Shown piece after piece: positions 2,093 through 56,803 of a stretch of DNA of 64,000 bases. Origin of the DNA: an uncultured Candidatus Saccharibacteria bacterium (GTDB lineage Bacteria; Patescibacteriota; Saccharimonadia; Saccharimonadales; CAZDBS01); assembly GCA_964503775.1 (NCBI GenBank), contig CAZDBS010000001.1, positions 9,621-73,620 on the forward strand, in the 5' to 3' direction. The notes beneath the pieces are model-generated. The model saw nothing but the letters and a program-made list of their open reading frames with translations. It had not been told where the DNA came from and did not search any database. Every line of letters begins with the position of its first letter. Position 1 is the stretch's first letter. A program made the translations under genes and the position numbers.

Positions 2093-3538
2093 ATGAAGAA
2101 ACTTAAATTCAAAGGTTTTCGTCTAGCGTTGGCTGGCTTACTACTTTTGGGAAGCATAGTCTCAAGCGTGCCAAAAGCCACCGCAGCAACACTAACACCA
2201 ACCGCTCAGGTTTCGTTTACTTTTGACGATGCCTTAGCGAGCACCTACACAAAAGCAGCACCTACACTTGCTAAATACGGTCAAACCGGAACAGTTTATG
2301 TCACGACCGGTTGTGTTGGCAGTGTCGGCACATGCCCAGCGGACCCTCAATCAACATATATGACTTGGGACCAGGTCAGCGCCCTGAAAACAACTTACAA
2401 CTGGGAAATCGGTGCACACACCGTGTCTCACCCTCAACTCGCTACTGATGGCTTGACGACAGCCCAGATTGTCAGCGAACTGAGTGATAGTAAAAATGAT
2501 CTGACCGCCCATGGTTTCAATGCGCAGGCCTTCGCCAGCCCATACGGGGATTACAACCCAACAGGTAACCCAGTTCTAGCCGAGATAGCCAAGCTCTACA
2601 GTTCACACCGTGGTTTTGCCGATACTGGTTACAACTCCTTCCCAAACAATGACTATCTACTGAGAGATCAACAGGTTCAGGCCGGAGTTACTGTAGCAAC
2701 AGTCAAAGGTTATATCGACCAAGCTATCGCCAGTAAGACATGGTTGGTTCTCACCTTCCATGATATTCAAGATACGCCGAACACCGACCCCGAGGAGTAC
2801 GAATATGCTACTGCGGATCTCGACGCTATTGCCGCCTATGTCAAAAGCAAAAATCTACGAGTGGTCAATGTTAGCGACGGTTTGGCAACGAGTGCAACTA
2901 ACATGCTAACCAACTCATCTTTCGACAACGGCTTAGCTGATGGTTGGACAACCGACAATGCCACGAGCGTCAAACTCAACACTGCCAACAACGGCAGCTA
3001 CCCAAGTCCCAAAAACTCGATTGAGTTAAACTCATCCACAACCAACGTTCATTTATTCTCCCCAACCGTTGATGTCGATTCTGCCCAAACCTACGTTGTT
3101 AAAAGTTTTCTCAATGTTCTCAAGCACGCTAGTGGTGAAGTCGCGTATTACGTGGACGAATATGATCTGAACGGAGTGTGGTTACAAACTCAGTATAAGA
3201 AAAGTGAGCCTACGGCTTTCGTCGAGACTATCAATTTCGAATACAAGCCTACCTCAGCAACTGTCAAAAAAGCTCGCGTACAGGTTGTAGTGACGGCTAA
3301 CTCTGGCATCCAAGCCTTTGTAGACAATTTCCAGATGTTCTCCGAATCAGGTACAACTCCTCCTGTAGCCCAGACACCAGGCGATGTAAATGGTGATAAG
3401 ATCGTGAACGCCCTCGATCTCAGTATCCTGCTGACCAACTGGTCTAAGACAGCTACCCGTGCCCAGGGTGATCTCAGTGGTGATGGTGTAGCAAACGCCC
3501 TCGATCTGTCGATATTACTAACGAACTGGAGTAAATAA
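2093..3538 (+). CDS. Secreted polysaccharide deacetylase (CE4/NodB domain) with CBM-like middle region and C-terminal dockerin repeats
   Basis: Signal peptide MKKLKFKGFRLALAGLLLLGSIVSSVPKATA. NodB motifs FTFDDA and HTVSHPQL. Two dockerin Ca-binding repeats, GDVNGDKIVNALDLSILLTNWSK and GDLSGDGVANALDLSILLTNWSK. GGAG RBS before the ATG. Confidence 0.8.
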   Translation: MKKLKFKGFRLALAGLLLLGSIVSSVPKATAATLTPTAQVSFTFDDALASTYTKAAPTLAKYGQTGTVYVTTGCVGSVGTCPADPQSTYMTWDQVSALKTTYNWEIGAHTVSHPQLATDGLTTAQIVSELSDSKNDLTAHGFNAQAFASPYGDYNPTGNPVLAEIAKLYSSHRGFADTGYNSFPNNDYLLRDQQVQAGVTVATVKGYIDQAIASKTWLVLTFHDIQDTPNTDPEEYEYATADLDAIAAYVKSKNLRVVNVSDGLATSATNMLTNSSFDNGLADGWTTDNATSVKLNTANNGSYPSPKNSIELNSSTTNVHLFSPTVDVDSAQTYVVKSFLNVLKHASGEVAYYVDEYDLNGVWLQTQYKKSEPTAFVETINFEYKPTSATVKKARVQVVVTANSGIQAFVDNFQMFSESGTTPPVAQTPGDVNGDKIVNALDLSILLTNWSKTATRAQGDLSGDGVANALDLSILLTNWSK

Positions 3539-5258: not shown

Positions 5259-5336
5259 GGCGGGCGTAGCTCAGTTGGTTAGAGCGCCAGTTTGTGGTAC
5301 TGGATGTCGTGGGTTCGACCCCCATCGCTCGCCCCA
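5259..5336 (+). tRNA. tRNA-His(GUG) with genomically encoded G-1 and CCA
   Basis: Extra 5' G opposite discriminator C73. Acceptor gcgggcg/cgctcgc, anticodon stem ccagt/actgg, loop tt-GTG-gt, T-arm gtggg-ttcgacc-cccat. Confidence 0.9.
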
Positions 5337-5343
5337 CACAAGG

Positions 5344-5367
5344 ACCCGGGCTTTGTCCGGGTTTTTG
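5344..5367 (+). terminator. Rho-independent terminator after tRNA-His
   Basis: acccgg / ccgggt stem with loop gctttgt, followed by ttttt. Confidence 0.7.
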
Positions 5368-5390
5368 TGTGGACAAATGATGGATGTCCG

Positions 5391-5506
5391 AACCCAGAAC
5401 CACGAAGTGTTGGGTGCGTGTAGCGACTGGCGCGCGCAGAAGTTTATATCGAGCATGATAGGAACGGAAATAGGGAGCGAAGCGACCGTCTTCCCATCGC
5501 TCCCCC
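5391..5506 (+). repeat. Degenerate tRNA-His 3'-half copy interrupted in the T-loop by a ~60-nt conserved insert (copy C of a 3-member family)
   Basis: tggatgtc (identical to the tRNA-His variable region) ... gttgggtgcg | tgtagcga..gcgcgcaga..atcgagcatg..ggagcgaag | cgacc..cccatcgctcccc (matches the tRNA-His 3' end cccatcgctcgcccc). The core is shared with 37096-37185 and 56549-56636. Confidence 0.6.
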
Positions 5507-35960: not shown

Positions 35961-36260
35961 TTAAGTAACGTCTTTAACTTGAATGACAAATTCACAAGCC
36001 TTACCAATTGAAATCAAAGCGTTTGTTCGTATTTCTTTCTTAATCGGCAGCAAATACGATCCAGACTTCTTATCAGGGAAGATAGACGTATGCCAAGAAA
36101 TTCCCTTTACCTCAGCTTTGACTTTTACTGAGCCAAATCCTTTTCGGTATTCTGAAGTCAAAACCTTGATCTCGTCTGATATATCCCCGGGTAGTGTTAC
36201 AAAAACCCACGCTCCGGCGCCATCGTATAACCAAGGTTTAGCTTTAAATGTATACTCCAT
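35961..36260 (-). CDS. DUF1905 domain protein
   Basis: AWVFVTLPGDISDEI...GFGSVKVKAEVKGISWHTSIFP pattern. Confidence 0.6.
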   Translation of the reverse strand: MEYTFKAKPWLYDGAGAWVFVTLPGDISDEIKVLTSEYRKGFGSVKVKAEVKGISWHTSIFPDKKSGSYLLPIKKEIRTNALISIGKACEFVIQVKDVT

Positions 36261-36287
36261 AAGACAATACTAACAGAGCTACCAAGA

Positions 36288-37052
36288 TTAAGGTCGGAGG
36301 GTTCCGGCAAATACTTGCCAAGCCAGCAATGACTTAGCGACTAGGCTTAAGATGACATACATCCTCTCACCATACAGATAGTCCTTCCATGGGCCCACTT
36401 TTCTGTACTGCAAAATCATATTTACTGCAAAGCAGCTAAAGAACACGAATATTGATACAAAAATCCAGTATACAAATGTAGGTGCCGGACTTCCTTGATT
36501 AGCGCCTAGCCACATGTACATAGCAATCACAATCCACGGCATGATGCCCGCAAAGCACCCTATGTAGTAACTCAGCCAGTTTGTCTTTTTTGTTGTTTGA
36601 TTATGTATTTCCATGACCAAGCCCATGAGGTTCATTATGGCCGTTAACGAAAATATCATCATCAAACTGCTCAAATCATAAACTCCTACCAACATAGCTA
36701 TGGCAATCATCATTACACTAGCCGAGATAGAGTATTCTACCCATCTCATTTTATTCATTCCGAGTTTTAGATCAGAGTTATATCGTTTGTTGTGTAGGGT
36801 TGCAATGTAAAAATGAAAAACCGATGATATAAAGAAAAACAATGCAATCAATAACGGAAGTTGCAAGTTAAACAAATCGGTAGTAGCTGGCTCTAAAGCC
36901 TTACTTGAATCATTAAAAAACAAGAAATTACCAGTTACGGGTATTGCAAAGCTTTTACTTAGTACCACCACCAGAACACCCTGGAATAAATGCAAGAATC
37001 CCGCTACGAGGTTTAGTCTTTTGAATTTTGATTCGGTGATTATTTTAGTCAT
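36288..37052 (-). CDS. Heliorhodopsin
   Basis: From memory it is close to the prototype HeR 48C12. Shared blocks: VAGFLHLFQG, SSVFHFYI, RWVEYSISASVM (counterion Glu), YIGCFAGIMPWI, and YLYGERMYVILSLVAKSLLAWQVFAGTLRP (retinal Lys in SLVAKS). Confidence 0.9.
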   Translation of the reverse strand: MTKIITESKFKRLNLVAGFLHLFQGVLVVVLSKSFAIPVTGNFLFFNDSSKALEPATTDLFNLQLPLLIALFFFISSVFHFYIATLHNKRYNSDLKLGMNKMRWVEYSISASVMMIAIAMLVGVYDLSSLMMIFSLTAIMNLMGLVMEIHNQTTKKTNWLSYYIGCFAGIMPWIVIAMYMWLGANQGSPAPTFVYWIFVSIFVFFSCFAVNMILQYRKVGPWKDYLYGERMYVILSLVAKSLLAWQVFAGTLRP

Positions 37053-37095
37053 GCTTACATGATAACAAGAATGGGGGCAAGTATCTCAGATTTGT

Positions 37096-37185
37096 GGCCC
37101 AGCGGGGTCGCTACGCTCCTCCGCTCAGACATGCTCGATGCAAGCATCTGCGCGTGTCTTCGCTACACCGAACCCGCTTCGCGTG
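37096..37185 (-). repeat. Degenerate tRNA-Lys 3'-half copy interrupted in the T-loop by the conserved ~60-nt insert (copy A)
   Basis: Minus-strand sense: cgcgaa-gcgggttcg | gtgtagcgaagacacgcgcagatgcttgcatcgagcatgtctgagcggaggagcgtag | cgaccccgctgggcc. The flanks match the tRNA-Lys T-arm and 3' acceptor. Confidence 0.6.
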
Positions 37186-37204
37186 TTCCAATCTCACAGA
37201 GATC

Positions 37205-37266
37205 TCTCCATGAAAAACACCCACGCAAGGTGGGTGAATTTCATGGAGGGCCCAGCGGGGCTCGGT
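37205..37266 (-). repeat. Perfect 21-nt duplicate of the tRNA-Lys 3' end (cgagccccgctgggccctcca) with its own terminator hairpin
   Basis: 37246-37266 is identical to the 3' end of the intact tRNA at 37437-37457. It is followed, in minus-strand sense, by tgaaattc and the hairpin cacccac-cttgc-gtgggtg-ttttt. Confidence 0.7.
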
Positions 37267-37436
37267 CACCTTCGGCGACCCCGGAACTTTCATACTTTCA
37301 ACGGAGTTGAAAATCTGAAAGATTCCCTTGCGATCCGCCACTGGCGGATCTCACCCCCGACACGCTCCGCGTATCGAGAGCCCGAACTCACTAGAATCTC
37401 CAAATTCAAAACCCCTCCTTCGAGGGGCTCTGAATT

Positions 37437-37512
37437 TGGAGGGCCCAGCGGGGCTCGAACCCGCGACACGCGGCTTAAAAGGCCGCTGCTCTACCAGCTG
37501 AGCTATGGGCCC
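37437..37512 (-). tRNA. tRNA-Lys(UUU), CCA encoded
   Basis: The reverse complement is gggccca-ta-gctc-agctggta-gagc-a-gcggc-ctTTTaa-gccgc-gtgtc-gcggg-ttcgagc-cccgc-tgggccc-t-cca. Confidence 0.9.
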
Positions 37513-56548: not shown

Positions 56549-56636
56549 CCGGCCGGTCCTCGCTGCGCTCGCGCATTTCGTCATGCTCGATACGAGTATC
56601 TGCGCGTGACTCCACTGGCGTCGAATCCGGCGACTA
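56549..56636 (-). repeat. Degenerate tRNA-fMet 3'-half copy interrupted in the T-loop by the conserved ~60-nt insert (copy B)
   Basis: Minus-strand sense: agtcgccggattcga | cgccagtggagtcacgcgcagatactcgtatcgagcatgacgaaatgcgcgagcgcag | cgaggaccggccgg. The flanks match ggtcgccggttcgagtccggccc of the adjacent tRNA. Confidence 0.6.
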
Positions 56637-56728
56637 TCATCTTTGCTTTCAGCAAATCTGAGTCGCCAATTCAAAACCTGACCCAGATTACCAAAACAAA
56701 ACCCCCACCAAAGGTGAGGGATTTGTTT

Positions 56729-56803
56729 TGGTAGCGGGGGCCGGACTCGAACCGGCGACCTTGTGGTTATGAGCCACACGAGCTGCCACTGCTCTACCCC
56801 GCG
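56729..56803 (-). tRNA. Initiator-type tRNA-Met(CAU), CCA encoded
   Basis: The reverse complement is cgcgggg-ta-gagc-agtggca-gctc-g-tgtgg-ctCATaa-ccaca-aggtc-gccgg-ttcgagt-ccggc-ccccgct-a-cca. The 1:72 position is unpaired (C1xU72) and the 5' end is CGCGGGG, as in bacterial initiators. Confidence 0.85.

Follow-up and report, generated by a model that had tools for sequence, protein, structure and literature searches.

The window analysed here, a stretch of 64,000 nucleotides (nt) on the forward strand of contig CAZDBS010000001.1 (positions 9,621-73,620) from an uncultured Candidatus Saccharibacteria bacterium, carries behind three of its transfer RNA (tRNA) genes a small non-coding element, in which a conserved insert splits a second copy of the tRNA 3' end within the T-loop. 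The core of this insert, CGCGCAGA-N7-ATCGAGCATG, is matched exactly three times in the window (Table 1), against 0.03 matches expected per shuffled window, and none of 100 shuffles contained three. Upstream of every core copy, on the same strand, lies an intact tRNA gene, for His, Lys or Met, recognized by both ARAGORN and Rfam, and 3' of each insert follows a fragment matching the T-stem 3' strand and the acceptor strand of that very tRNA. The window's other five tRNAs have plain terminators and no insert-bearing appendix. The initial annotation had reported three tRNA-linked split copies with a shared core, and had itself asked whether that core was better than chance for this base composition; the counts bear out both the linkage and the core, and the observation of insert-bearing pseudo-tRNAs is confirmed as real. 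A covariance model of the core scanned against the window retrieved the same three copies, which represent different subtypes or states, and the low score of the His copy compared with the Lys and Met copies indicates that it is decayed.

Alignment of the tRNA-to-insert intervals across loci revealed that the insert belongs to a larger non-coding unit of about 170-230 bp, the parts of which follow each other in constant order: the tRNA, a T1 hairpin or terminator, a T-arm-complementary segment, a small capping hairpin, the variable loop and T-stem 5' strand in a direct copy that ends in GGTTCG, the insert, and a tRNA tail consisting of the rest of the T-loop, the T-stem 3' strand and the acceptor 3' strand, often with CCA and in many copies with a terminator directly behind it. 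The positions at which the three elements were originally made to begin, 5391, 37185 and 56636, were too far downstream; the element starts at the T-arm-complementary segment. Whatever the tRNA, the breakpoint falls at T-loop positions 57-59, and the unit, sitting between positions 57 and 59, supplies the last approximately 19 nt of the tRNA (positions 58/59 to CCA), while the upstream tRNA stays intact and its original 3' end, pushed to just behind the insert, decays there. No open reading frame (ORF) was found in the units, and a small ORF from the ATG of GAGCATG was dropped, as this ATG is not conserved.

The flanks of the insert had been described as tRNA-specific and its junctions as marked by a repeated CG or CGA, and both statements hold in part. 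The 3' tail is strongly cognate to the upstream tRNA (median 15 of 19 identities versus 6 for non-cognate tRNAs, p = 4e-29), whereas the 5' flank in many relatives is non-specific beyond GGTTCG; the repeat of CG(A) is found in the subtypes of the window but not throughout the family, in which subtype A ends in GCU joined to AUCC, and the repeat is A or AT in subtypes B and D. The T-arm-complementary segment is cognate-specific at positions 44-53 (p = 1e-7) and 59-65 (p = 2e-4), but its acceptor part is not (p = 0.9). Units do not all contain the tRNA 3' half as a complete inverted copy, only the T-arm part being statistically cognate; a nearly full inverted copy, starting with TGG, is present in four related loci only (L121, L157, L145 and L199). 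The complementary and direct copies pair to form P1, which encloses the small hairpin, so that the insert branches from a duplex mimicking the T-arm region.

Table 1. Components of the tRNA-His, tRNA-Lys and tRNA-Met loci of the window
Feature	Position	Strand	Basis
tRNA-His(GTG), intact	5260..5336	+	ARAGORN; Rfam tRNA, 63 bits
T1 terminator-like hairpin after CCA; 3' flank UGG pairs with CCA	5337..5372	+	sequence; layout repeated in 50+ homologous loci
P1 region: CGAACCC (inverted T-arm piece, 5389-5395), hairpin CAC-GAA-GUG, GGGTGCG	5389..5418	+	sequence; RNA fold; family architecture
Conserved insert copy C, degenerate (P2 and P3 helices weakened), core 5433-5457	5419..5482	+	pattern search; covariance match 5426-5463, 20 bits
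Displaced, decayed tRNA-His 3' end (CGACC..CCCATCGCTCCCC)	5483..5505	+	12/14 identities with tRNA-His tail at 5492-5505
tRNA-Lys(TTT), intact	37437..37512	-	ARAGORN; Rfam
Newer unit at tRNA-Lys	37244..37436	-	sequence; exact 14-nt tail match 37247-37260; no covariance model match
T2 hairpin/terminator after internal tail; part of older unit	37208..37243	-	sequence
Older Lys unit, 5' part: decayed inverted tRNA 3'-half copy (TGGAGAGATCTCTGTGAGATTGGAAC), hairpin CGC-GAA-GCG, direct copy GCGGGTTCG	37169..37210	-	sequence; comparison with tRNA reverse complement; DNA and RNA folds
Conserved insert copy A, subtype A with shortened 3' domain, core 37130-37154	37111..37168	-	covariance match 37124-37161, 62.6 bits
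Oldest displaced tRNA-Lys 3' end (CGACCCCGCTGGGCC), without CCA and without terminator	37096..37110	-	tail match 37094-37107
tRNA-Met(CAT), intact	56729..56803	-	ARAGORN; Rfam
T1 hairpin/terminator; 3' flank UGGUA pairs with the tRNA's UACCA	56689..56728	-	sequence
P1 region: inverted copy TGAATTGGCGAC (56662-56673), hairpin AUUUGC-UGAAA-GCAAAG, direct copy GTCGCCGGATTCG	56622..56673	-	sequence; RNA and DNA folds form helix
Conserved insert copy B, core 56582-56606	56563..56621	-	covariance match 56576-56613, 52.9 bits; comparison with L094
Truncated displaced tRNA-Met 3' end (CGAGGACCGGCCGG)	56549..56562	-	sequence

The last approximately 19 nt of tRNA-His would have been supplied by its unit, and GGGTGCG at this locus is the direct T-arm 5' half, decayed from GGGTTCG. 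Two units stand behind tRNA-Lys. The newer one comprises the T1 hairpin (37401-37436), an inverted T-arm copy, the direct copy GCGTGTCGGGGGTGAG, a structured stretch of about 88 nt that we call 'ins2', and the tail CGAGCCCCGCTGGGCCCTCCA (37244-37264); the older one includes GGAAC at 37185-37189 in its T-arm-complementary segment. The internal tail is a perfect copy of the tRNA-Lys tail including CCA and the distal tail is decayed, a gradient that fits serial insertion. The module containing 'ins2' (37244-37402, minus strand) has the same architecture as the core-family units, although its insert, with the hairpins AUCCGCC..GGCGGAU, UUUCAAC..UUGAAAG and GGUCGCC..GUGACC, is unrelated to the core family. 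Copy B behind tRNA-Met is of the same subtype as the copy of L094, which sits at a tRNA-Phe.

A further feature of the unit-bearing tRNAs is the hairpin directly 3' of them (5337-5372, 37401-37436 and 56689-56728, and in most related loci), in which A-rich and U-rich flanks pair and which ends in UGG(N), complementary to the (N)CCA of the tRNA itself, so that the tRNA 3' end could be sequestered in a long helix. The tRNAs of the window that lack units have no pairing hairpin with a UGG(N) end.

Distribution of the unit and its tRNA hosts

In a pattern scan of one genome per species, genuine core copies, with N7 spacing and a spacer that forms a hairpin, were confined to Saccharibacteria and one Kaiserbacteria metagenome-assembled genome; in high-GC Proteobacteria and Actinobacteria, the matches of N6 or N8 spacing, and many of those with N7, were discarded as chance occurrences inside coding sequence. 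Metagenomes yielded at least 65 further genuine copies among the matches listed, about half of the metagenomic pattern matches having been discarded as chance matches in coding sequence, and the covariance model gave 117 matches in 603 kb of related loci, including divergent copies that the pattern search had missed. From Saccharibacteria to Kaiserbacteria the 25-nt core is nearly invariant, which implies a conserved partner, be it a recombinase or an RNA-binding enzyme.

The core lies 77-131 nt 3' of a same-strand tRNA in 57 loci and 248-287 nt in three further loci, the longer distance being explained by two units in tandem. The hosts amount to about 25-30 tRNA species or anticodon classes, and in these loci the unit always has the orientation of the tRNA. 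Whether copies always sit behind tRNAs had been raised as a check; nearly all of those recovered do, whereas in L136 (1955-1992) a core hairpin scoring 53 bits is found outside its usual context, with no tRNA or GGTTCG nearby; it lies upstream of a putative transketolase gene (judged from the N-terminal translation only) and is followed by three GGATAGCA repeats.

Variant arrangements were also observed. In L178 the core adjoins a tRNA of opposite orientation. Some units contain two core hairpins in tandem (L177, 693-778; L209, 1291-1506; L178, 1198-1286), the second of which has compensatory P3 changes, GGUGC/GCACC and GGAGC/GCUCC. In L178 and L232, after tRNA-Thr(CGT), a spacer of about 55 nt is followed by an uninterrupted duplicate of the tRNA 3' half, and unrelated structured inserts occupy units of L068 (tRNA-Ser(CGA)), L190 (tRNA-Thr) and L181 (tRNA-Arg(GCG)). 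In these genomes the 3' ends of tRNAs seem to be hot spots for tiny insertions in general.

As the initial annotation had supposed, we found no described element of this kind. Against Rfam 15 only tRNAs reached the gathering threshold, and a search of two units at E <= 10 gave nothing credible; among 2.9 million viral contigs there was either no match or a chance match with neither covariance model support nor a tRNA; BLAST against phage and plasmid records gave no match, and a full-text literature search returned no description of such units.

Folded structure of the insert

The insert, of about 60-105 nt, consists of a rod-like hairpin and a small 3' hairpin. Its 38-nt centre is a continuous irregular hairpin, built from a variable P2 of 5 bp, a core that runs C / G-C, C-G, R.A and C-G with a bulged A, and a P3 of 5 bp closed by a CUUG or CUYG loop. 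Across 63 distinct sequences, 94.6% of the alignment cells of P2, core and P3 are paired, compared with 12-31% when the partners are slid, and seven pairs are altered on both sides, values that no shuffle reached. The pattern search had fixed the inner helix, but compensatory changes are seen there too in the divergent copies found by the covariance model, in which the first inner pair is changed from G-C to A-U or U-A and P3 appears as GGUGC/GCACC, GAAGC/GCUUC, CGAGC/GCUCG, GGAGC/GCUCC, GGAAU/AUUCC or GCUGC/GCAGC.

Around this common centre, subtypes A to F differ in the junction and the 3' domain. A model of the whole insert was built for subtype A, the commonest, in which a 9-nt junction segment pairs with the segment after P2 (13-53 and 14-52), tandem G.A pairs lie beside P2, a lone pair 9-57 (U-A in 10 sequences, C-G in 6) has G.A pairs on either side, and the 3' hairpin has 4 bp and a GAA or AAA triloop. 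Of the cells of its 20 pairs, 94.2% are paired, and 11 pairs are altered on both sides (0 of 500 shuffles); the minimum-energy fold of the L122 copy agrees with the model. Subtype D also pairs its junction with the segment after P2, but by means of other sequences (AUAAAC/GUUUAU, AUAUUC/GAAUAU, AUAAU/AUUAU). We had considered a GYGNAGC minihairpin in the junction segment, but the covariation partner of position 13 is position 53, which rules it out.

C(GNA)G triloop hairpins, such as GCGAAGC, occur at 4.6 per kb in units and 0.49 per kb in the surrounding DNA, an enrichment of about 9-fold; among tetraloops G(CUUG)C predominates. Triloops of the C(GNA)G type are characteristic of minihairpins that are very stable in DNA, and are not known as one of the special loops of RNA. 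RNA and DNA folding energies do not discriminate between the two forms. Three resemblances to known motifs were dropped, a hammerhead-like CUGA..GAAA motif and a group II intron domain 5 after inspection, and an opposite-strand, retron-like order because the tRNA-sense strand is the one that wobble pairs favour.

Insertion, turnover and cargo

The geometry of insertion is best seen in L189, where tRNA-Phe, its hairpin, the P1 region, the insert and the tail GGGAGGAGCCACCA are followed after 3 bases by tRNA-Gly(GCC) with its own terminator. Since this tail keeps the native context of the Phe-Gly tandem, it is the original 3' end, and the 172 nt between the two Phe tails were thus inserted at the T-loop, the new 3' end and hairpin being imported. 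Similarly, in L016 a perfect tail and a terminator are followed by the promoter and gene start that directly follow the tRNA in the unit-free L233. The duplicated segment is the tRNA tail of about 19 nt, extending up to 57 nt in L067. Tandem units occur in L110 and L107 as well, and arrays in L195 and L181.

Empty sites in relatives, which had been proposed as a further check, were found. In front of the same downstream gene, the tRNA-Ser(GCT) site carries a unit in L220, L016, L181 and L134 but none in L233, and tRNA-Ser(GCT), tRNA-Ser(CGA) and tRNA-Arg(GCG) are each both filled and empty among related contigs; an identical tRNA-Gly(TCC) is free of a unit in the window but bears one in L067 and L148. 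At tRNA-Lys(TTT), four different subtypes are present in different genomes, and one subtype occurs at different tRNAs. In L153 (minus orientation, about 2925-3090) a subtype-A insert alone interrupts the T-loop of an otherwise complete tRNA-Ser(CGA), with no intact upstream copy; this is the single locus, of about 80 testable copies, at which in-silico removal of the insert restores a tRNA recognized by ARAGORN. L153 shows either what a primary insertion looks like or a dispensable tRNA that was killed when a deletion joined the direct repeats.

In a few loci, cargo is bordered by units or tRNA tails. L195 (4593-8710) contains three near-identical 260-nt units, one at tRNA-Asn and one after each of two cargo cassettes, which include a Fic-domain gene, a SHOCT-domain gene, an XRE-type regulator and other small genes; the layout resembles an integron, but no integrase was found within the 14 kb examined. 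Near-identical units were seen only in arrays at one tRNA. Cargo followed by a further tRNA tail is likewise present in L206/L123, L055 and L225, and a Pfam search of the 6-kb cargo of L225 revealed no recombinase. A separate 7-kb island occupies tRNA-Arg(TCG) in L123 (269-7470), upstream of a pre-existing unit. It encodes a 550-aa large serine recombinase, the C-terminus of which is encoded antisense across the tRNA, together with a putative XRE/ImmA-type regulator and a putative PIN-type nuclease (both from translations only); its crossover lies at another point (GGTGTACCA), and the relic ACGGTGTACCA with a terminator forms its right end.

Directly 3' of the tRNA-Lys units of the window come a gene for a heliorhodopsin (Pfam E = 1e-97) and an ORF of 99 aa (35961-37052, minus strand). 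Homologues of the heliorhodopsin with 80-84% identity occupy four quite different neighbourhoods, none with a tRNA-Lys, and the gene itself may be cargo gained at tRNA-Lys. An empty tRNA-Lys site was sought through these homologues and none was obtained, the gene having no conserved neighbourhood.

The search for a driving enzyme covered both the window and the surroundings of the units. By Pfam the 62 window ORFs are housekeeping genes, among them RecA, RuvABC, DnaK/J, type IV pilus genes and ComEC besides the heliorhodopsin, with no integrase, transposase, reverse transcriptase, TnpA, TnpB or RAYT, and clustering of the proteins neighbouring about 80 units disclosed no recurrent family. The recombinase or autonomous element bearing the same core that the initial annotation suggested looking for did not emerge from either set, and the only integrase seen, that of L123, belongs to a separate island. 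With no ORF in the units, no recurrent neighbour and no recombinase in the window, the driving factor would have to act in trans, from another part of the genome.

Interpretation and relation to known systems

We propose that these sequences are a family of small, non-coding, non-autonomous integrative units specific for tRNA T-loops in Saccharibacteria and the Candidate Phyla Radiation (CPR), in which the hairpin is a cis-acting handle for a trans-acting enzyme, and we would give this reading a probability of about one half. Integration would proceed by a single crossover at the junction of insert and tail against the T-loop and 3' part of a tRNA gene, catalysed by an enzyme encoded elsewhere. 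The invariant unpaired bases of the hairpin (C-N-C-R-C-A ... G-A-G-N'-A), which lie beside the crossover point, might be the handle recognized by this enzyme, and the inverted and direct T-arm copies would pair and present a mimic of the target duplex next to it, a folded site comparable in logic to integron attC or CTX-phage attP. The active fold could be one of single-stranded DNA or one of RNA transcribed by read-through from the tRNA promoter. Points on the side of folded DNA are the absence of room for a promoter after the strong hairpin, the enrichment of C(GNA)G triloops, the exact recombination junction, the target duplex mimic and the decay of displaced copies. Among the explanations offered by the initial annotation, a miniature element targeting the T-loop comes closest, given the constant breakpoint, the presence and absence of units among relatives and the movement of subtypes between tRNAs; what moves, however, is the unit of about 170-230 nt and not the insert of about 60 nt alone, which stands by itself only in L153.

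Several observations weigh against our proposal. Each unit must carry a tail matching its tRNA, yet one family serves about 30 tRNA species, and neither the window nor the neighbourhood of the units revealed a candidate enzyme. Neither a free or excised form nor a strictly isogenic pair of filled and empty sites was seen among the loci examined; the pair L233/L220 can also be read as insertion after the native terminator, because the T1 hairpin resembles the terminator of the empty site, and insertion after the terminator or later rearrangement is thus possible at some loci. The copies of one genome are not especially alike, and recent bursts are hence not in evidence. With RNA and DNA parameters alike the z-scores of folding are modest (-1.3 to -2.6), and G.U pairs outnumber A.C pairs on the tRNA-sense strand by no more than about 3:1. 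Finally, the L189 unit, lying within a tandem tRNA operon, must be transcribed through if tRNA-Gly is expressed, which keeps a role for RNA open.

Such a role is the substance of the main alternative, which we regard as possible though rather unlikely, namely that the unit encodes a functional structured RNA transcribed by read-through from the tRNA promoter, with its tRNA-derived arms, one antisense to the T-arm 5' half and one 3' tail identical to the last approximately 19 nt of the tRNA, serving as guides or mimics. It could be a bridge-RNA-like guide that programs a recombinase or nuclease to the cognate tRNA gene, or an RNA interacting with the tRNA or with tRNA-processing enzymes. The strong covariation, the non-canonical features typical of RNA (tandem G.A pairs, the lone 9-57 pair, the G(CUUG)C tetraloop), the invariable tRNA-sense orientation with wobble pairs favouring that strand, the terminator right behind many tails and the L189 operon all speak for this reading, as do the arms, which left of the breakpoint complement the top strand and right of it repeat that strand's sequence. 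IS110 bridge RNAs follow such a logic, the guide being complementary to one side of the breakpoint and identical to the other. The initial annotation had likewise listed a tRNA-derived structured RNA; the structure is amply supported, but covariation does not establish RNA as the active form. The unit starts directly after a strong hairpin, usually with a U-tract, leaving no room for a promoter; copies decay and turn over and are not kept at orthologous sites; the antisense arm does not maintain its acceptor part; nothing encoded nearby is a partner protein; a guide matching the intact tRNA gene just upstream would target its own locus; and the enriched triloop hairpins point to DNA.

Two further explanations have to be weighed. 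The copies might be ordinary scars, attR-proximal stubs of prophages or islands once integrated in tRNA genes and later deleted, and serial integration with partial tRNA repeats is well known, for example from tycheposons; classical islands indeed use the same tRNAs, as the L123 island does with tRNA-Arg, and tRNA tails bound the cargo cassettes of L195, L225, L206 and L055. Random deletion would nevertheless not leave the same spacing and ordered parts in 57 loci at about 30 tRNA species, what is conserved is a covarying fold instead of a remnant of coding sequence or arm sites, the L123 island used another crossover point and sits upstream of a pre-existing unit, and the motif is absent from the viral, phage and plasmid collections, all of which render this account improbable. 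The related suggestion of joined end-remnants from one family of integrative elements is not supported, in view of the uniform spacing, the covarying fold and the absence of an integrase linked to the units, whereas the accompanying remark, that an integrase is normally specific for one tRNA and leaves no common filler, is a fair account of why the units are unusual. Less probable still is a self-splicing or enzyme-spliced T-loop intron with the downstream copies as intron-bearing pseudo-alleles. The fixed position of the insert and the restored tRNA of L153 would agree with it, and archaea are known to have T-loop introns that have spread from one tRNA to another, but the complete tRNA is one case among about 80 and is equally explained by deletion between the direct T-arm repeats that flank the palindrome. 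Removal of a subtype-A insert leaves TTCG-AT, a 6-nt T-loop without A58, and that of other subtypes leaves duplications of 1-3 nt; about 60-105 nt is far too small for a group I intron, no Rfam model matched, and no bulge-helix-bulge was seen by inspection.

More tentatively, and well short of our confidence in integrative units as such, the family may represent a new class of gene-free, site-specific CPR mobile element that is programmed by nucleic-acid structure, through an internal copy of the target T-arm, both inverted and direct, next to an invariant hairpin. This hairpin would either recruit a recombinase in trans or act as an RNA guide, in a logic similar to that of a bridge RNA or an attC site, in an element that homes to the cognate T-loop, regenerates the gene and creates landing pads for cargo. 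If this is true, a very small mobile unit defined by structure would join the short list of elements that target tRNA genes, and the reduced genomes of Saccharibacteria and other CPR bacteria would carry an active, widespread and gene-free mobilome at their tRNA loci. In practical terms, the units account for the pseudo-tRNA fragments and additional hairpins that confuse the annotation of CPR genomes, and mark sites at which cargo is gained, including Fic, HD-domain and other small cassettes and possibly the heliorhodopsin by tRNA-Lys. If the conserved partner were found, it could provide a compact tool with which to program insertions at a universal sequence.

The units share features with several known systems. 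With IS110 bridge RNA and TnpB omega RNA they have in common a structured non-coding scaffold between segments that match the two sides of a breakpoint, one by complement and one by identity, a comparison with IS110 that concerns arm orientation only. They do not lie inside an insertion sequence (IS), there is no DEDD or serine recombinase and no TnpB near them, no bridge-RNA model of Rfam 15 matched, and their arms are much longer, decay with age and have an intact target only a few dozen bases upstream. Archaeal non-canonical tRNA introns likewise place related short sequences at one fixed structural position, including the T-loop, of many tRNAs, whereas nearly all copies here are in 3' fragments behind an intact tRNA, form no bulge-helix-bulge and in the main subtype give no normal T-loop upon removal. 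Unlike in miniature inverted-repeat transposable elements, the inverted segments copy the target T-arm instead of being specific to the element, there is no fixed-length target-site duplication, and near-identical copies occur only in arrays at one tRNA.

Parallels also exist with the HUH elements of the IS200/IS605 group, their miniature derivatives and the REP/RAYT (repetitive extragenic palindrome and its associated transposase) systems, which have conserved imperfect hairpins and tiny non-autonomous copies served in trans. These elements insert strand-specifically right 3' of a fixed short sequence and make no constant target duplication; the insert here always follows (G)GTTCG on the tRNA-sense strand, but the unit as a whole duplicates the tRNA tail. 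The units differ from IS200/IS605 in having no paired left and right hairpins, in duplicating about 19 nt of the target and in carrying an inverted target copy, and neither TnpA (Y1) nor TnpB was found in the window or next to units. Integron attC and CTX-phage attP(+) sites are, like the insert, imperfect hairpins with a variable stem sequence but conserved pairing and few invariant unpaired bases; they too are non-coding and lie at cassette boundaries, and the T-arm copies could rebuild a mimic of the target duplex. The RYYYAAC/GTTRRRY core sites of attC are nevertheless missing, P1 being (G)AGAACC ... GGTTCGG with C and not a purine as the fourth base of R', and the bulged A and the G.A mismatch are no more than analogous features. 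No IntI or attI was found, cassette-like cargo is limited to a few loci, the target is the tRNA T-loop and not attI or dif, and the use of single-stranded DNA is only inferred.

Similar in behaviour are the tRNA-targeting islands, including tycheposons with their arrays of partial tRNAs, which also integrate in the 3' part of a tRNA, supply a new 3' end and leave the old one as a direct repeat, accumulate by repeated integration into arrays with the oldest copies farthest away, and include cargo-only members. The units depart from them in being only about 200 bp long with no integrase or other gene, in serving about 30 tRNA species with one family, and in having a conserved covarying hairpin exactly at the junction together with an inverted T-arm copy. 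We would therefore place them with the tRNA-targeting integrative elements, as a possibly undescribed member of that group for which a structure- or RNA-programmed homing mechanism, new in kind, can be envisaged.

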